Below are positions 1 to 7,081 of a stretch of DNA of 7,081 nucleotides, in pieces. The stretch's first letter is position 1. The number at the start of each line of letters is the position of its first letter. The stretch is from a virus (Duplodnaviria > Heunggongvirae > Uroviricota > Caudoviricetes): the IMG/VR virus record IMGVR_UViG_2585427785_000006; one strand, given 5' to 3'. The notes beneath the pieces were generated by a model, which did not search any database, was not told the DNA's origin, and was given only the letters and a program-made list of their open reading frames with translations. The translations under genes and the position numbers were made by a program.

Positions 1-933
1 ATGGACAACGACAAAATTGATCAACACAGCGACGAAATTGAAGTTGAGAGCGAAGAAAAAGAGCGCGGCAAAAAAATAGAAATAGATGAAGACCGACTCC
101 CCTCCCGGGCGATGGCAATTCATGAGCATATCCGCCAGGATGGTGAAAAAGAGCTGGAACGCGACGCAATGGCGCTACTGTGGTCAGCCATTGCGGCGGG
201 TCTGTCGATGGGCGCTTCGTTACTGGCAAAAGGGATATTTCAAGTCGAACTGGAAGGTGTGCCGGGCAGCTTCTTGCTGGAGAATCTCGGTTATACCTTT
301 GGTTTTATTATCGTCATTATGGCCCGCCAGCAATTATTTACCGAAAATACCGTGACTGCGGTACTACCCGTCATGCAAAAACCGACAATGAGCAACGTCG
401 GCTTACTTATACGGTTATGGGGCGTCGTGCTGCTGGGTAATATTCTCGGGACAGGTATTGCGGCGTGGGCATTTGAATATATGCCTATCTTCAATGAAGA
501 AACTCGCGATGCATTTGTCAAAATCGGCATGGATGTGATGAAGAACACCCCCAGCGAGATGTTTGCCAACGCGATCATTTCCGGCTGGCTGATCGCCACT
601 ATGGTTTGGATGTTTCCTGCAGCGGGTGCGGCAAAGATTGTGGTGATTATATTGATGACCTGGCTTATTGCCCTGGGTGACACCACCCATATCGTGGTCG
701 GTTCTGTTGAAATCCTCTATCTGGTGTTTAACGGTACGCTGCACTGGAGCGATTTCATCTGGCCCTTCGCACTACCTACTTTAGCGGGGAACATCTGCGG
801 CGGCACCTTTATCTTCGCGTTAATGAGTCATGCACAGATTCGTAACGACATGAGCAATAAGCGTAAAGCAGAAGCACGCCAAAAAGCAGAACGTGCGGAA
901 AACATTAAGAAAAATTATAAAAACCCGGCATAA
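1..933 (+). CDS. yfdC: Inner membrane protein YfdC, formate/nitrite transporter (FNT) family
   Basis: Full 310-aa ORF from ATG at 1 to TAA at 931-933. The translation matches what I recall of E. coli K-12 YfdC and has a hydrophobic, multi-helix membrane profile. Its position directly upstream of tRNA-Arg argW and intS is the known K-12 arrangement. Confidence 0.9.
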   Translation: MDNDKIDQHSDEIEVESEEKERGKKIEIDEDRLPSRAMAIHEHIRQDGEKELERDAMALLWSAIAAGLSMGASLLAKGIFQVELEGVPGSFLLENLGYTFGFIIVIMARQQLFTENTVTAVLPVMQKPTMSNVGLLIRLWGVVLLGNILGTGIAAWAFEYMPIFNEETRDAFVKIGMDVMKNTPSEMFANAIISGWLIATMVWMFPAAGAAKIVVIILMTWLIALGDTTHIVVGSVEILYLVFNGTLHWSDFIWPFALPTLAGNICGGTFIFALMSHAQIRNDMSNKRKAEARQKAERAENIKKNYKNPA

Positions 934-1008: not shown

Positions 1009-1083
1009 GTCCTCTTAGTTAAATGGATATAACGAGCCCCTCCTAAGGGCTAATTGCAGGTTCGATTCCTGCAGGGGACACCA
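1009..1083 (+). tRNA. argW: tRNA-Arg, anticodon CCU (reads AGG)
   Basis: 75-nt sequence GTCCTCTTAGTT...GCAGGTTCGATTCCTGCAGGGGACACCA folds as a cloverleaf: 7-bp acceptor stem (GUCCUCU/AGGGGAC), T-arm GCAGG-TTCGATT-CCTGC, anticodon loop CUCCUAA with CCU, encoded 3' CCA. It matches E. coli argW as I recall it and sits in the expected yfdC/intS context. Confidence 0.92.
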
Positions 1084-1208: not shown

Positions 1209-1244
1209 GTGGATAAAATAATTTTACCCACCGGATTTTTACCC

Positions 1245-2402
1245 ATGCTCACCGTTAAGCAGATTGAAGCAGCAAAGCCGAAAGAAAAACCATACCGCCT
1301 ACTCGATGGTAATGGCCTGTACCTTTATGTCCCTGTGTCAGGGAAAAAGGTATGGCAGCTTCGCTACAAGATTGACGGTAAGGAGAAAATCCTGACCGTA
1401 GGAAAATATCCGCTAATGACTTTGCAGGAGGCAAGGGATAAGGCATGGACTGCGAGGAAAGACATCTCGGTTGGCATCGATCCGGTAAAGGCGAAAAAGG
1501 CTTCGTCTAACAACAATTCCTTTAGTGCGATTTACAAGGAATGGTACGAGCACAAGAAGCAAGTATGGTCAGTAGGGTATGCGACTGAACTTGCAAAAAT
1601 GTTTGATGACGACATTTTACCTATCATCGGCGGCCTTGAAATTCAGGATATTGAGCCGATGCAACTGCTGGAAGTAATCCGCAGATTTGAAGATCGCGGT
1701 GCAATGGAGAGAGCAAATAAAGCCCGCAGAAGATGCGGCGAGGTTTTCCGTTACGCTATTGTTACTGGTAGGGCTAAATATAACCCGGCACCTGACCTTG
1801 CTGACGCCATGAAGGGATACCGCAAGAAAAACTTCCCGTTTCTTCCTGCAGACCAGATCCCGGCATTTAACAAAGCACTGGCAACATTTTCAGGAAGCAT
1901 CGTATCGCTCATTGCGACCAAAGTTTTACGCTACACAGCCCTCAGAACAAAAGAGCTTCGTTCCATGCTATGGAAGAACGTCGATTTTGAAAACAGGATT
2001 ATCACCATCGACGCCAATGTGATGAAGGGACGCAAAATTCATGTGGTTCCTATGTCAGACCAGGTAGTTGAACTTCTCACTATGCTAAGCTCAATCACCA
2101 AACCAGTATCAGAGTTTGTTTTTGCCGGGCGCAACGATAAGAAGAAGCCAATTTGCGAGAACGCTGTACTGCTTGTGATCAAACAAATCGGCTATGAAGG
2201 TCTGGAAAGCGGTCACGGATTCAGGCATGAATTCAGCACGATTATGAACGAGCACGAATGGCCTGCCGACGCCATTGAAGTGCAACTTGCACATGCCAAC
2301 GGCGGATCTGTGCGCGGGATTTACAACCATGCACAGTATCTCGATAAGCGCAGAGAAATGATGCAGTGGTGGGCGGACTGGCTTGATGAAAAGGTAGAGT
2401 GA
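1245..2402 (+). CDS. intS: Tyrosine site-specific integrase, P4/CPS-53 (KpLE1) IntS type
   Basis: 385-aa ORF beginning MLTVKQIEAAKPKEKPYRLLDGNGLYLYV, matching E. coli K-12 IntS as I recall it. The C-terminal catalytic region carries tyrosine-recombinase hallmarks (LRTKELR, HGFRHEF, GSVRGIYNH with the nucleophile Tyr). The ORF track extends upstream to a GTG at 1209; I take ATG 1245 as the start by homology. Confidence 0.9.
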   Translation: MLTVKQIEAAKPKEKPYRLLDGNGLYLYVPVSGKKVWQLRYKIDGKEKILTVGKYPLMTLQEARDKAWTARKDISVGIDPVKAKKASSNNNSFSAIYKEWYEHKKQVWSVGYATELAKMFDDDILPIIGGLEIQDIEPMQLLEVIRRFEDRGAMERANKARRRCGEVFRYAIVTGRAKYNPAPDLADAMKGYRKKNFPFLPADQIPAFNKALATFSGSIVSLIATKVLRYTALRTKELRSMLWKNVDFENRIITIDANVMKGRKIHVVPMSDQVVELLTMLSSITKPVSEFVFAGRNDKKKPICENAVLLVIKQIGYEGLESGHGFRHEFSTIMNEHEWPADAIEVQLAHANGGSVRGIYNHAQYLDKRREMMQWWADWLDEKVE

Positions 2403-2622
2403 GCGACCTTAAACTATCGAATAGCACAAAGCCTAGCAATCCAGTACAAAGCTTTGTGTGTCTCAGTTTTGTCTAAGTGTTCTACTAAAACATAGTAAAA
2501 TCGGTAACGGCTGGAAATCATTCAATACTCGCACTATCGGAAGTTCACCAGCCAGCCGCGGTACGTTCTTACATACGATGTACCGCTGTTCTCTTTACGA
2601 TTTATAGCTGTACTGGTGAATT

Positions 2623-2948
2623 ATGAGCAATCTGAATCCATGCATGACGTGTGGTGCCTGTTGTGCATTTTCCGCGTCTCTTTTTACTGGGCAGAAGCTG
2701 ACGATGCTGGCGGAAAGGTTTCGGTCAGTCTCACTGAGCAAATATCTCCTTTTCATCGCTGTATGCGCGGCACCAATCAGAAAAATCCCCGATGTGGCGC
2801 TCTTGCCGGCCCCCCCCGGAGAAAACGCATATTGCTCTGTTTACAAAAACCGTCCACATGCAGGGAATTCGCAATGTCCGGCGAAAATAGCATCGTAAAT
2901 GAAGCATGTAATCGCGCACGGGAAAAATATGGATTTCCAAAAATCTGA
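2623..2948 (+). pseudogene. YkgJ-family (CxxCxxCC putative zinc/iron-chelating domain) protein gene, disrupted by three 1-nt frameshifts
   Basis: The ATG at 2623 is preceded by a GGTGA Shine-Dalgarno and encodes [16 protein letters not shown]. The reading frame must shift -1 at T4 (2668-2671), +1 at C8 (2810-2817) and -1 at A5 (2845-2849) to give a ~109-aa protein: ...[15 protein letters not shown]...[64 protein letters not shown]. The ORF-track entries 2623..2898 and 2616..2948 are the two frames of this one gene. Confidence 0.6.
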
Positions 2949-3060
2949 ATATTCTCCGCCGTGCAAAAATGCGAACAACATCACTTCACTAATCAACCTG
3001 ACATGGCATACTTAGCACGCTAACTATGATAACAAACTAATACCCTAAAACTCATGGTTC

Positions 3061-3087
3061 CGGGACTGGTCGTGGTCCCGTTTTTTT
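3061..3087 (+). terminator. Rho-independent terminator for the YkgJ-like gene
   Basis: 6-bp GC-rich stem CGGGAC/GTCCCG (3061-3066 / 3075-3080), 8-nt loop, then T7 (3081-3087). The reverse complement has no U-tract after the stem, so it is plus-strand specific. Its T-run ends at the stop codon of the convergent J-like ORF. Confidence 0.55.
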
Positions 3088-3089
3088 AT

Positions 3090-4400
3090 TCAGCCAGCAG
3101 GCCATCCAACAACGTAACTGCGGATCGCCTTCAGCTCTGTCAGCGCCTCAACCTCTGCTTTCATCTGCAACTGCCGTGTATTAATCTCCACCCCCTTCGC
3201 AAACATCGCCTGCTCTGTCGCATCCGACAGGGCTATGATGTCTGCCGCCGTCACCGGCACCACATTATTATCCCCGTCGGTCCAAGCAAAACCTTCCGGA
3301 AGACGGTTATTCTCTGCCATCAGGCGTGTCATGCTTATCCTGGACAACGTCTTCTTGCCGTAATCCCAGTTCCTTCCGTTGAATTCCATCATGTATTCCA
3401 TATTCTCCTGCACATCACGCCAGATATTAATCTCTTCCCTTTTCGCCGCTTTTGCCGCTTCCAGTACTGCTTCCGTGGCGACAAAGGCACTCACACTTCC
3501 GTACGTTCCTGCTGTCAGCCCAGACCACAATGCTTTTCCGTGTTCTGTATTATCCGTTTCCGTTGCAGTATACGGCAGCCATACCTGTTCCCCTTTTTCA
3601 TTCCCCGCGTCTTCAAACTGCCCCTCACAGTTTATCCCGCCATATTCGTTGCTGGCTGCATTTCGTACTGCAAGAATCTCTTTTCCCTTATGGTAGTTCA
3701 CCGTCATCTGCTGACCACCAAACTGCTCCGCATCCACCTGCATCCCCACAATGGCCGTGTTCGGGTAGCACTGTTTCACATCGATGATTTCGGTGTATGA
3801 CGACCACAGCGTTCTGTTCTGCAGCTGGTCCGTGGTGCTGTCCGCCGTCTCCCTGACCATCCGGATGTTAAAGGGGCGGGGAGGCAGATTATCCAGAATC
3901 ACCGAGGCCAGGAACTGTGAGGTGGTCTTGCCGTTAATGGTGACATCCTTTTCTGTCACCCAGTTACCGTTACGCTGTAACTGAATCAGCAGACGGACAG
4001 AGGACGGATTACGGTCACCCTTTGACGTGGTCTCCACCAGTGACTGCACCCCGAAGGTCACCCGCAGGCGGTCAATGTTCGCTGACGTAATGGTGCGTGT
4101 TACCGGTTTTGCCCTGGTCACTTCGACACCCAGTACAGTTTCAGAGCCGGAGGACTCAAAGCCTTCCGGTGGTGTCTGCTCCTGCTCCCCGGCACGCCAG
4201 ACCGCGGTCACACCGTGTATCACGGGATTACCGTCCGTGTCCGTCAGCGGGGTTTTGTTCACCAGAATACTCTGCAGGCTTTTCACCGGGCCTTCTATCG
4301 GTCCCTCACCAATCGCATCAATCACGCTCATCATCTGCGTGGATTTGAGATTGTCTTTCGCCTCACGAGGCGTGTGTGCCTTACCGCCACCTTTTCCCAT
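3090..4400 (-). CDS. J: Chimeric/truncated tail tip (host specificity) protein: J-like N-terminal ~243 aa fused to ~190 aa of unassigned sequence
   Basis: 436-aa ORF with a GGAAGG Shine-Dalgarno upstream of ATG 4400. The N-terminus MGKGGGKAHTPREAKDNLKSTQ...FESSGSETVLG...VKQCYPNTA...NYH tracks lambda gpJ residues 1 to ~243. Downstream of about nt 3670 the sequence no longer resembles lambda J, and the ORF stops at 436 aa where J-like proteins run to about 1100 aa. Confidence 0.75.
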   Translation of the reverse strand: MGKGGGKAHTPREAKDNLKSTQMMSVIDAIGEGPIEGPVKSLQSILVNKTPLTDTDGNPVIHGVTAVWRAGEQEQTPPEGFESSGSETVLGVEVTRAKPVTRTITSANIDRLRVTFGVQSLVETTSKGDRNPSSVRLLIQLQRNGNWVTEKDVTINGKTTSQFLASVILDNLPPRPFNIRMVRETADSTTDQLQNRTLWSSYTEIIDVKQCYPNTAIVGMQVDAEQFGGQQMTVNYHKGKEILAVRNAASNEYGGINCEGQFEDAGNEKGEQVWLPYTATETDNTEHGKALWSGLTAGTYGSVSAFVATEAVLEAAKAAKREEINIWRDVQENMEYMMEFNGRNWDYGKKTLSRISMTRLMAENNRLPEGFAWTDGDNNVVPVTAADIIALSDATEQAMFAKGVEINTRQLQMKAEVEALTELKAIRSYVVGWPAG

Positions 4401-4506
4401 ACAGCCTTCCCCTGAATAAATTAACCGCCACTTGCCATTCCGTACAGAAGTCGGATATCCTTCGCCCGAAAAGCATGAAACACATTTCTGCCATGCTAAA
4501 GAGAAA

Positions 4507-4539
4507 CCCCGGTATCAGCAGATACCGGGGTTTTCTTTC
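4507..4539. terminator. Perfect 10-bp hairpin (CCCCGGTATC-agca-GATACCGGGG) flanked by T-rich tracts on both strands; putative bidirectional intrinsic terminator
   Basis: Stem 4507-4516 / 4521-4530 with a 4-nt loop. Followed by TTTTCTTTC on the plus strand and by TTTCTCTTT on the minus strand. Lies in the non-lambda insert between I and J. Confidence 0.5.
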
Positions 4540-4657
4540 ATGCCCACCGATAATCCTGTTGGTTAAAACCGGTAATGGCATAAAAATTCTGAATATCTTC
4601 ACATTTTCACAAACTGACCGTGGCGCGTATAATTTTTCTGCGTTTATTTTTTTTTTG

Positions 4658-4666
4658 TGATATAAA
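4658..4666 (+). promoter_or_regulatory. Candidate extended -10 element (TGaTATAAA) preceded by a T10 tract (4647-4656)
   Basis: TG at 4658-4659 sits one nt upstream of TATAAA (4661-4666), with an AT-rich UP-like region upstream. A second TATAAT is at 4628-4633. No convincing -35 for either. A start here would give a short plus-strand transcript ending at the 4699-4737 terminator. Confidence 0.3.
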
Positions 4667-4698
4667 AATAATTTCTTTCACTTAATCTTTCTTAACTC

Positions 4699-4737
4699 TC
4701 CCGCAGTTCCTGTCCGCGATCACTGCGGGATTTTTTT
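4699..4737 (+). terminator. Strong plus-strand rho-independent terminator
   Basis: 9-bp stem TCCCGCAGT/ACTGCGGGA (4699-4707 / 4722-4730), 14-nt loop, then T7 (4731-4737). The reverse complement is followed by GAGTTAAG, which is not U-rich, so it is unidirectional. It ends 8 nt from the stop of the convergent I gene. Confidence 0.6.
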
Positions 4738-4744
4738 ATTCTTT

Positions 4745-5410
4745 TTACCCCTGCCGCCCGATAACCACGACCTTTCCGCCCCCGCCTTCATCACGGGTGC
4801 TGATGTCCTGGGATATACGGCGGGAGCCAACCAGCATTTCCCCGTAAGGCACCGGCATCGGGTTCCCCTGGGCAATCATGTTATCCAGCGAGGAAAAGTA
4901 CGTGTTCTGTCTGCCGTTATCCGTTGCGCGGTAATCCGGTGTTTTTGCCTTCGGGGCCAGCATCTGGGCCACACCGCCCAGTATCATGCTGGCACCCAGT
5001 GAAAACAGCATCGTGGTGGCAGAAAAACCACCGGCACTCAGGGCTGTACCCCATAACGCCATCGAGCCTCCGGCCGTGAAGAAAGAGCCCACGATGGCTG
5101 CCGCCCCCAACACAATCTGCAGTCCACCCTTTCCGGCCCCGGCCAGTCGCGGCACAATGTGGATGACCGTTCCCTCACCCAGCTGTTCGTGAAGGCGGGC
5201 GTACACCACCTCCGGTGCCGTGTCTTCACCGGCAATACGTATCTGGTACCAGCCTTCGTTCATCTGAAGGCGAAAGCCCGGCATCTGCATCGACAGGGCG
5301 CGAATGGCTTCCGCTGCCGTGTTCACATACAGGCTGAGGCGGCGGCCAAATCGTTGTAAATCCCCGTGGTTGCCCACGGTTGAGCCAGAGATAACAGCTT
5401 CCACCATCAT
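4745..5410 (-). CDS. I: Tail assembly protein I-like, N-terminally truncated (homology from about nt 5365 downward)
   Basis: From GDLQRFGRR onward the translation tracks lambda gpI, including the Gly/Ala-rich hydrophobic segment and C-terminal ...NTYFSSLDNM.AQGN...YGEM.VGSR..SQ.IST.DEGGGG.VVVIGR. The first ~15 codons of the ORF (MMVEAVISGSTVGNH) are out-of-frame FII sequence, so the natural I start is missing. Confidence 0.75.
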   Translation of the reverse strand: MMVEAVISGSTVGNHGDLQRFGRRLSLYVNTAAEAIRALSMQMPGFRLQMNEGWYQIRIAGEDTAPEVVYARLHEQLGEGTVIHIVPRLAGAGKGGLQIVLGAAAIVGSFFTAGGSMALWGTALSAGGFSATTMLFSLGASMILGGVAQMLAPKAKTPDYRATDNGRQNTYFSSLDNMIAQGNPMPVPYGEMLVGSRRISQDISTRDEGGGGKVVVIGRQG

Positions 5411-5707: not shown

Positions 5708-6103
5708 TTATTGCATTCTGGCCAGGCCGCGCTCTGTCATTTCAGCTGCCACACCGGCAGAGACACGGAACGCCGTTCCCGGCAGCACAAATGCCACAGT
5801 GTCATCCCGCGTGGCGTGAAGTGCATCAGTATGCAGCGTCACCAGTGCCACGACCGTGACCAGAGCAGCCGTATCAATCACGGTATCCGGCTGCGCTGAT
5901 ACCACCTCATTTTCATGTCCGGTCAGCGCATTTTCCGGGCTGACAGATGTGTCCTGACCGGCAGCGTCATCCGTGTCATCAAGCTCCTCTTCCAGCTCTG
6001 CCACACGGAGCACCAGTTCTTCTTTCGTCCCCGTCAGGCTGACATCACGGTTCAGTTGCTCACCCAGCACCTGAAGACGGGCAATCAGTTCATCTTTCGT
6101 CAT
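5708..6103 (-). CDS. FI: Head assembly/DNA-packaging protein FI-like (intact, 132 aa)
   Basis: ATG at 6103 is preceded by a GGAGG Shine-Dalgarno. MTKDELIARL...LTGTKEEL.LRVAEL.EELDDTD...LTGHENEV.SAQPDTVI...HTDALHATRD..VAFVLPGTAFRVSAGVAAEMTERGLARMQ is close to lambda gpFI over its whole length. The ORF-track extension to 6142 is upstream read-through. Confidence 0.85.
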   Translation of the reverse strand: MTKDELIARLQVLGEQLNRDVSLTGTKEELVLRVAELEEELDDTDDAAGQDTSVSPENALTGHENEVVSAQPDTVIDTAALVTVVALVTLHTDALHATRDDTVAFVLPGTAFRVSAGVAAEMTERGLARMQ

Positions 6104-6114
6104 GGACTCCTCCA

Positions 6115-6142
6115 CAGAGAGAAAATGGCCCCGAAGGGCCAT
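6115..6142 (-). terminator. Hairpin with UUCG loop plus U-tract between the E fragment and FI (putative attenuator/terminator)
   Basis: On the minus strand: AUGGCCC-UUCG-GGGCCAU (7-bp stem, plus-strand 6125-6142) followed by UUUUCUCUCU, starting 2 nt after the TAA of the upstream ORF and just before the FI Shine-Dalgarno. Confidence 0.45.
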
Positions 6143-6144
6143 GA

Positions 6145-6561
6145 TTACGCCAGTTGTACGGACACGAACGCATCAGGATCAGCCAGCAGCATCAGCGGTG
6201 CTGACTGAATCATGGTGAACTCACGCGCCGGATCGCCGGTGGTCACCCAGTTTTTCGGGTAGCGGGCAGAGGCGTTAATACCTTCGCGCTGTGCGTCCGC
6301 ATCCTGAATGCAGCCATAACCAACACGGGCAGACTTCACCACATTCACCTCACGGATGTAGTCGCTGCCCATCGCATTCATGATGGCCCGCTGAAAGGGC
6401 AGTGTTTCCCAGCGCCCTTCCTGGTATGCGGATTCTTTCGGGAGATAGTAATTGGCATCCGCCCATTCAACGGCGGTCTGTGGCTCCGGCCTGAACAGTG
6501 AGCGAAGCCCGGCGCGGACAAAATGCCGCAGCCTGTTAACCTGACTGTTCGATATATTCAC
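6145..6561 (-). CDS. In-frame fusion ORF: terminase large subunit A residues 1-82 joined to the C-terminal ~56 residues of major capsid protein E
   Basis: GTG start at 6561 overlaps the Nu1 3' end by 26 nt, as in lambda. MNISNSQVNRLRHFVRAGLRSLFRPEPQTAVEWADANYYLPKESAYQEGRWETLPFQRAIMNAMGSDYIREVNVVKSARVGY is the gpA N-terminus. It is followed in frame by GCIQDADAQREGINASARYPKNWVTTGDPAREFTMIQSAPLMLLADPD.FVSVQLA, the gpE C-terminus. Junction at nt 6313-6318. Confidence 0.8.
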   Translation of the reverse strand: MNISNSQVNRLRHFVRAGLRSLFRPEPQTAVEWADANYYLPKESAYQEGRWETLPFQRAIMNAMGSDYIREVNVVKSARVGYGCIQDADAQREGINASARYPKNWVTTGDPAREFTMIQSAPLMLLADPDAFVSVQLA

Positions 6562-7081
6562 TCAGCAACCCCGGTATCAGTTCATCCAGCGCGGCTGCTT
6601 TGTTCATGGCTTTGATGATATCCCGTTTCAGGAAATCAACATGTCGGTTTTCCAGTTCCGGAAAACGCCGCTGCACCGACAGGGGGATCCCGTCGAGAAT
6701 ACTGGCAATTTCACCTGCGATCCGCGACAACACGAAAGTACAGAATGCGGTTTCCACCACTTCAGCGGAGTCTCTGGCATTCTTCAGTTCCTGTGCGTCG
6801 GCCTGCGCACGCGTAAGTCGATGGCGTTCGTACTCAATAGTCCCTGGCTGGAGATCTGCCTCGCTGGCCTGCCGCAGTTCTTCAACCTCCCGGCGCAGCT
6901 TTTCGTTCTCAATTTCAGCATCCCTTTCGGCATACCATTTTATGACGGCGGCAGAGTCATAAAGCACCTCATTACCCTTGCCACCGCCTCGCAGAACGGG
7001 CATTCCCTGTTCCTGCCAGTTCTGAATGGTACGGATACTCGCACCGAAAATGTCAGCCAGCTGCTTTTTGTTGACTTCCAT
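6536..7081 (-). CDS. nu1: Terminase small subunit Nu1 (intact, 181 aa)
   Basis: The ATG is at the window edge (7081). MEVNKKQLADIFGASIRTIQNWQEQGMPVLRGGGKGNEVLYDSAAVIKWYAERDAEIENEKLRREVEELRQ...SEYIEQSG is essentially identical to lambda Nu1 over its full length, including the N-terminal winged-HTH region. Confidence 0.92.
   Translation of the reverse strand: MEVNKKQLADIFGASIRTIQNWQEQGMPVLRGGGKGNEVLYDSAAVIKWYAERDAEIENEKLRREVEELRQASEADLQPGTIEYERHRLTRAQADAQELKNARDSAEVVETAFCTFVLSRIAGEIASILDGIPLSVQRRFPELENRHVDFLKRDIIKAMNKAAALDELIPGLLSEYIEQSG

Follow-up and report, generated by a model that had tools for sequence, protein, structure and literature searches.

The gene ykgJ is an old, conserved core gene of Enterobacterales that encodes a protein of 109 amino acids (aa): in a protein-guided scan of the GTDB species representatives we found core ykgJ orthologues only, across Enterobacterales, and in Escherichia coli K-12 the gene lies between ecpE and yagU. 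A study by transposon-directed insertion-site sequencing (TraDIS) ties YkgJ to biofilm fitness and filamentation (PMC8743551). DNA derived from ykgJ/ecpE is also found on prophages: Nakamura et al. (2021, PLoS Pathog, PMC8112680) described a 96-bp sequence, 'attB-in-PP_2', that lambdoid prophages carry and that is a secondary attachment site, into which other lambda-like phages integrate. Furthermore, prophage-type copies of the gene itself are labelled 'YkgJ family cysteine cluster protein, frameshifted' by the Prokaryotic Genome Annotation Pipeline (PGAP) in the RefSeq records of cM8a, TOE17, NMBU-W12E19, O111:H21 15A, 55989, JKHS016, and JE86-ST02, and a further-truncated version in VT1-Sakai (H0002), located between dinI and a tail-fibre gene, is annotated 'similar to E. 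coli K12 YkgJ'. Here we analyzed a 7,081-nucleotide (nt) stretch of viral DNA (IMG/VR record IMGVR_UViG_2585427785_000006; the whole stretch is called the window below), and in particular its positions 2623-2948. We consider it very likely that this segment is a non-functional relic of a prophage-borne ykgJ paralogue, bearing two inherited slippage lesions and a C tract that keeps changing in length. The kind of object is already known, an ordinary prophage-borne ykgJ pseudogene whose close relatives are flagged as frameshifted in RefSeq. The gene and its lesions are located as follows.

2623..2948, plus strand: ykgJ-like pseudogene of 326 nt (330 nt / 109 aa in its ancestral form), paralogous to core ykgJ and carried on a prophage
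2668..2671, plus strand: T4 run, one T shorter than the T5 of K-12 ykgJ and of intact alleles (a -1 frameshift)
2810..2817, plus strand: C8 run, a +1 frameshift relative to the C7 (Gly-Pro-Pro) of the intact allele; a hypermutable homopolymer
2850..2853, plus strand: single CCGT, a 4-nt deletion shifting the frame by -1; intact alleles have CCGTCCGT

A megablast search with positions 2500-3060 returned, at about 85% identity, the chromosomal ykgJ of nearly all E. coli and, at 94-99% identity, a small second group of prophage-borne copies. We then compared the corrected 109-aa product with the profile of PF03692 (CxxCxxCC; UPF0153), a putative zinc- or iron-chelating domain, for which the gathering score is 23 bits. 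The product scored 43.2 bits and covered profile positions 1-85 of 85, and the intact prophage allele and K-12 YkgJ scored 46.1 and 44.6 bits, respectively, in agreement with the original prediction, made from the sequence of the window, of a broken YkgJ-like CxxCxxCC gene. As in K-12 YkgJ (b0288; WP_001303809.1), the ancestral length is 109 aa; the alignment between the two proteins is gapless over all 109 residues, and the Cys residues of the N-terminal C-x2-C-x2-C-C motif (Cys7, Cys10, Cys13, and Cys14, encoded at 2641-2664, upstream of the first frameshift) are all kept. This membership in the YkgJ/PF03692 family applies to the ancestral gene and to no present product.

The window copy differs from K-12 ykgJ in being located on a lambdoid prophage end, in its three frameshifts, and in a coding sequence (CDS) that is only 78.5% identical; including the upstream region, DNA identity with core ykgJ was 85% over 440 nt. 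The C7/C8-type tract is not present in the core gene either, which has GGAACCCCGGGC (C4) at that position. The intact prophage allele was 82% identical to Escherichia YkgJ by tblastn, and its ratio of nonsynonymous to synonymous substitution rates (dN/dS) against K-12 ykgJ was 0.06 (range given, 0.06-0.09). The prophage paralogue has thus diverged from core ykgJ under purifying selection, and 2623-2948 is a copy of this paralogue, not the host's own ykgJ.

The lesions were defined against an intact prophage allele from O157:H16 (locus L007, 2501-2830; WP_071528431.1, 109 aa), which has T5 and C7. Relative to intact homologues the frame of the window gene is disrupted by indels that all fall in short repeats, T5 to T4, C7 to C8, and (CCGT)2 to (CCGT)1, and it is lost soon after the ATG and the Cys motif. 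The original prediction had proposed three single-base errors, each within a mononucleotide run. Two of them, one T too few at 2668-2671 and one C too many at 2810-2817, were borne out as -1 and +1 differences from L007, and slippage at short repeats was rightly named as what broke the gene, judging from the position of the indels in the T run, the C run, and the CCGT repeat. The third was misplaced: the A5 at 2845-2849, thought to be one A short, was unchanged in 19/19 aligned copies of the lineage and in intact alleles too. Instead, the sequence is CAAAAA-CCGT-CCGT-CCACATGC in intact alleles but CAAAAA-CCGT-CCACATGC in the window, so that the third lesion is the loss of one unit from a two-copy tandem repeat, in which -4 equals -1 modulo 3. 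Repairing the A5 run as first suggested does regain the frame but gives a protein of 108 aa with ..YKKPSTC.., whereas repair by comparison gives 109 aa with ..YKNRPSTC.., in agreement with intact alleles (K-12 YkgJ has ..YKNRSSTC..).

The longest open reading frames (ORFs) that remain are one of 91 aa (2623-2898) and one of 110 aa (GTG 2616 to 2948). Either might be functional, with C8 compensating for T4: the -1 of T4 and the +1 of C8 together regain the frame for 12 codons, leaving a 91-aa ORF that retains the native start region and the CxxCxxCC motif, and C8 is the commonest tract length of the frameshifted lineage (7/22 copies). But neither ORF matched the PF03692 profile, about 47 internal codons and the C-terminal third of the 91-aa ORF are out of frame, and four of the seven C8 copies represent one argW locus, the other copies having 6, 7, 9, 10, or 11 C. 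A functional residual ORF is, in our judgment, extremely unlikely. We also tried C8 as a selected suppressor of T4 and rejected it, as no length preference was left once the four argW-locus copies were counted once. Two further fixed frameshifts flank the C tract, and therefore a full-length protein results from no tract length.

We collected copies of the gene from complete genomes, from exact-pattern scans of IMG/VR and metagenome contigs, and by protein look-up; the pattern used for the viral and metagenome scans took tracts of 4-10 nt only, so that C11 or longer, as in 55989, would escape it. The copies fell into two haplotype groups. Group A has T5 and (CCGT)2, and its C7 is intact in L007 and L009-L011; one member, SHP24 (L006), has C8 as its sole defect and is separated from L007 by a single substitution over 764 nt. 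Group B, in which T4 and a single CCGT are always paired, consists of 22 copies from separate assemblies, the window included, and covers all seven complete E. coli genomes with the T4 + single-CCGT haplotype, each of which carries the RefSeq/PGAP frameshift label mentioned above. T4 was found in 22/22 of these copies and T5 in every intact allele examined. Group B copies occupy at least four chromosomal sites, among them btsS/yehV (beside dinI), paoD, the tRNA-Ser by hyaA, and argW/intS. In every prophage copy, ykgJ is the outermost gene at the tail-fibre end and is convergent with a DUF4376 tail-fibre-assembly gene. The window copy is like the seven RefSeq copies in having T4 and a single CCGT, in adjoining the DUF4376 gene, and in its DNA identity of 96-99% with them; it is unlike them in lying directly downstream of intS at argW, not beside dinI or tRNA-Ser, and the C-tract length varies from copy to copy, from 6 to 11.

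To see how common the two groups are, a 61-nt probe over the CCGT site was used, and 142 of 5,426 complete E. coli genomes proved to carry a prophage-type copy; 7 of them have a single CCGT, and the other 135 match as closely as would be expected if they had (CCGT)2. With a 102-nt probe taken from the C7 intact allele, exact matches were found in 20 of the complete E. coli genomes. No prophage-type copy was found by an exact-pattern scan of the GTDB species representatives, and a search of the phage collection gave no full-length copy, only truncated 5' fragments of about 110 nt with 83-89% identity, in Shiga toxin (Stx) phages. Another copy, from E. coli O104:H4 (L004, 2624-2884), has T4 but keeps (CCGT)2, has GGAACTCCGGG at the tract position, and has lost about 60 bp; in the PGAP annotation it is divided into two CDS. 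This copy resembles a recombinant of the dead and intact allele groups, or an intermediate between them.

These copies bear on whether the lesions are real. The original prediction had allowed for local sequencing error, in which case the gene would be intact in the strain and the three indels would be homopolymer miscalls in a draft assembly. The window does come from a draft contig (JOQI01000019.1, GCA_000714015.1), stopping 39 nt short of its end; homopolymers are a well-known source of miscalls, and C-tract lengths are unequal among otherwise identical copies. However, T4 with a single CCGT is present in the 22 separate-assembly copies, including seven complete genomes and the Sanger-finished 55989. 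Furthermore, three other assemblies of the same argW locus (L014, L015, and L021), 99.8-99.95% identical to the window, have exactly T4, C8, and a single CCGT; the four argW-locus assemblies agree on C8, which is therefore reproducible for this locus. The third lesion, the loss of a 4-nt repeat unit, is unlike a homopolymer miscall, and the A5 and T5 runs of the region are all invariant across the 19 aligned copies of the lineage. Error is thus refuted for T4 and for the CCGT loss, and if C8 alone were an error the gene would still be broken; we hold an artefact to be barely credible. T4 and the single CCGT are common to copies at several sites and are therefore older than the spread of the prophage module. 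From the alignments we read the two as inherited lineage markers, neither sequencing errors nor recent events. The recent inactivation that was also proposed could apply at most to the C tract.

Next, we analyzed the C tract, which the original prediction had called slippage-prone. Its length in the 22 group B copies was C6 in 5, C7 in 3, C8 in 7, C9 in 4, C10 in 1, and C11 in 1, and the remaining copy had CCCTCCCC. We compared about 764 nt around the tract with the tract itself masked. Copies with 0-3 substitutions per 764 nt had tracts of 6, 6, 10, 9, 7, 6, 8, and 7 within the lineage range of C6-C11; L012 (C6) and L013 (C10) had 0 differences outside the tract, as did L005 (C8) and L023 (C9). 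The tRNA-Ser-site copies of complete genomes had C7, C8, C9, and C11. The comparison of tract lengths across related genomes thus supported the view that the tract is prone to slippage. Mononucleotide shuffling of the window gave a C/G run of at least 8 in 20% of cases; the C8 run alone is unremarkable, and what is remarkable is its length variation among near-identical copies. In the alignment of about 800 nt, the only other length-variable homopolymer was the T7 tail at 3081-3087, which was T7 in 15, T8 in 3, and T6 in 1 of 19 copies. The C5 at 3191-3195 was a 3-C run in 12/19 copies with no gap, which is a substitution and not a length change.

Most prophage alleles have GGAACTCCGGG at the tract position, with no C run, and are intact (WP_022581964.1, WP_001367470.1), and the allele of L112/L113 has GGCACCCCGG, its CACCCC being one C short, and is frameshifted at this site. 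On these alignments the C tract is a derived feature.

A coding poly-C with length polymorphism in close relatives is also what contingency loci of Neisseria, Haemophilus, and Campylobacter have, and we weighed whether the tract might be an ON/OFF switch of a phase-variable prophage YkgJ paralogue, with the window in the OFF state. In favor of a switch are the high polymorphism among near-identical copies (C6-C11 with 0-3 substitutions per 764 nt), the intact ORF of the C7 alleles L007 and L009-L011, the case of SHP24 with C8 as its sole lesion 1 substitution away from L007, and the frameshift of the related L112/L113 allele at the same site. In the window lineage, however, the gene is irreversibly broken at two other sites, so that tract changes switch nothing and, unlike in contingency loci, a repeat change alone does not toggle an intact gene. 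In addition, most prophage alleles are simply intact and have no C run at the site, and SHP24 is the one possible OFF example seen on an intact background. YkgJ is a small cytoplasmic-type Cys-cluster protein, whereas phase variation is usual for surface and restriction-modification types. Phase variation is ruled out for the window lineage, and as an account of the locus we rate it very unlikely; only the C7 alleles on an intact background are weakly possible candidates. For these otherwise intact alleles (GGC-CCC-CCC), it is conceivable though very unlikely that the tract is a genuine switch, ON at C7 and OFF at C6 or C8, and that two more slippage events later fixed the window lineage in the OFF state. 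If true, a lambdoid prophage of E. coli would carry a simple-sequence contingency locus. In the window lineage, the tract seems to vary by neutral drift, as a homopolymer under no constraint would.

Taken together, the following course of events would explain the relic. Lambdoid E. coli prophages carry a ykgJ paralogue as the outermost cargo of the tail-fibre end, and with it some 125 nt from the intergenic region of ykgJ and ecpE; most prophage alleles are intact and have evolved under purifying selection. In one lineage, replication slippage, the presumed mutational mechanism, would have removed one T from T5 and one CCGT unit from CCGTCCGT, and both losses are fixed and present in every copy of the lineage, whatever its chromosomal site. 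The allele-specific C7 tract would have arisen by substitution from GGAACTCCGGG/GGCACCCCCGG-type codons. With selection gone, tract length would drift freely by slippage from C6 to C11, C8 being the state of the window strain and its closest relatives.

The DNA upstream of the pseudogene was compared with that of K-12 and of other prophages, and three features were defined.

2495..2622, plus strand: captured ykgJ upstream region (att-like segment and start region), 96.1% identical to the K-12 intergenic region over 128 nt
2615-2625, plus strand: start region GGTGA-ATT-ATG (GGTGA at 2615-2619), identical to that of functional K-12 ykgJ
2403..2540, no strand assigned: mosaic joint, argW/intS-island type over 2403-2494, common to both contexts over 2495-2540, and lambdoid-prophage type from 2541

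The start region, GGTGAATTATG, is thus identical to that of a functional gene, and the Shine-Dalgarno sequence and ATG are intact, as predicted. Identity to K-12 decreased with distance from the att-like segment: it was 96.1% in the 128 nt upstream of the ATG, 92% in the first 100 nt of the CDS, and 72.6% in the remaining CDS. The upstream segment is common to K-12, VT1-Sakai, cM8a, and the intS-downstream region of strains without the pseudogene. In the window it adjoins the DUF4376/J remnant, a layout found likewise in cM8a, VT1-Sakai, and others. Window positions of about 2487-2582 are the probable counterpart of attB-in-PP_2, to go by this homology. Like the published module, the window has ykgJ/ecpE intergenic homology and a 5' part of ykgJ at the tail-fibre / effector-locus end of a lambda-like prophage; the module is a landing site for other prophages there, and in the window the arm of another element (intS) abuts the segment. 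The window differs in that the published homology is at most 309 bp and covers 5' ykgJ only, whereas here the equivalent of the whole 330 nt is retained, and in that the joined element is the arm of an argW/IntS island.

Positions 2403-2494 were 95.7% identical to L110, an intS-downstream region from a strain without the pseudogene, and unrelated to cM8a, whereas 2541-2622 were 100% identical to cM8a and 2541-2600 were 77% identical to L110. The junction with the integrase arm therefore falls inside the att-like segment (2495-2540). This suggests, from the pattern of identities, that the joint arose by recombination, site-specific or homologous, at the attB-in-PP_2-like sequence. If anything here still serves the element, it would be the putative att segment and not the ORF, and the pseudogene would be a passenger of the captured att region.

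A comparable layout was seen in E. coli JE86-ST02 (L120, 175-1859), where the frameshifted ykgJ copy is immediately preceded by an xis-like DUF4224 gene and a tyrosine integrase, a tandem or prophage-in-prophage arrangement analogous to the intS and truncated ykgJ (ykgJ') order of the window. In the K-12 ecpE-ykgJ intergenic region (L008, 1361-1485), we noticed a degraded dinI-like fragment that corresponds to DinI residues 34-55 and 65-82 in two frames and is collinear with the prophage order dinI - spacer - ykgJ'. In 80 other loci from Enterobacterales, ykgJ had no dinI next to it; a single weak dinI-like match (L088) lay about 2.7 kb downstream, and dinI as an ancestral neighbour of ykgJ was rejected on its absence from other genera. 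The 'core' ykgJ locus may itself bear a prophage scar, the dinI-like fragment; the published direction of transfer is not settled by these data.

Several points weigh against the reading of 2623-2948 as a dead relic with a captured att region. A truncated product could conceivably be made from the 91-aa ORF, and the loss of function is deduced from the sequence alone. The published 96 bp is given in a figure only, and its match to about 2487-2582 rests on the shared K-12 intergenic homology. Some of the variation in tract length could stem from homopolymer miscalls in certain older or long-read assemblies; most of it is probably biological, because same-locus replicates agree (4 x C8, 2 x C6), and the Sanger-finished 55989 genome shows the extreme value, C11. 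We nevertheless regard the relic as by far the best explanation.

The remaining features of the window are as follows.

1-933, plus strand: yfdC
1009-1083, plus strand: argW, tRNA-Arg(CCT)
1209-2402, plus strand: intS, an IntS-type tyrosine integrase adjoining argW
3061..3087, plus strand: terminator-like hairpin with a T7 tail, 113 nt past the pseudogene stop, with the convergent tail-fibre-assembly ORF ending 3 nt away
3090-4400, minus strand: fusion ORF joining the N-terminus of tail tip protein J (FNIII-A; PF24801, 139 bits) to a tail-fibre-assembly-like DUF4376 C-terminus (PF14301, 59.5 bits)
4745-5410, minus strand: tail assembly protein I
5708-6142, minus strand: FI
6145-6561, minus strand: fusion ORF of the terminase A (large subunit) N-terminus and the C-terminal 56 aa of major capsid protein E
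6536-7081, minus strand: Nu1

The genes on the minus strand make up a lambdoid late region with heavy deletions. Both in-frame fusion ORFs were made by large deletions in this lambdoid remnant, and the J::DUF4376 fusion marks the degraded right end of the prophage. The neighbours had been described as undamaged, which held insofar as they did not decay by frameshifts, but the flanking prophage has decayed by large deletions. Among the complete E. coli genomes of the collection, none had the whole arrangement of the window, and the best covered 44% of it.

The predicted terminator was present, as a hairpin with a T7 tail on the plus strand at 3061-3087, and is plausibly an intrinsic terminator; it lies outside the K-12 ykgJ-homologous DNA, which ends at about 2929. 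A promoter scan of 2350-3150 gave no sigma-70-like site upstream of the ATG and one site at 3003-3030, which is within chance expectation. In an Rfam scan of the whole window at E <= 1, the argW tRNA-Arg alone reached threshold; an RNA explanation was rejected, as a CssrB match at 2557-2609 on the minus strand scored 23 bits, far under the gathering score of 76. The related prophages L013, L019, and L003 lack a segment (4404-4579, about 176 nt) that the window has between tail genes I and J. The I-J spacer (4400-4745) has a perfect 13-bp hairpin followed by T's (4504-4533), a T10 run (4647-4656), and a second hairpin with T7 (about 4702-4737), and the segment could be a small moron or the remnant of a transcription unit.

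The finding has little importance beyond annotation hygiene: the gene should be annotated as a frameshifted prophage YkgJ-family pseudogene and not 'repaired' as an error, with the third lesion entered as the loss of a CCGT repeat unit. As a lineage marker, the T4 + single-CCGT haplotype is handy for one family of lambdoid prophage ends, and the C6-C11 tract is a fast-evolving marker that could separate very close strains, as well as a trap for homopolymer-error polishing. For the biology of these prophages, the window adds another mobile-element joint inside a ykgJ/ecpE-derived att-like segment, which fits the published picture of 'prophages integrating into prophages'.

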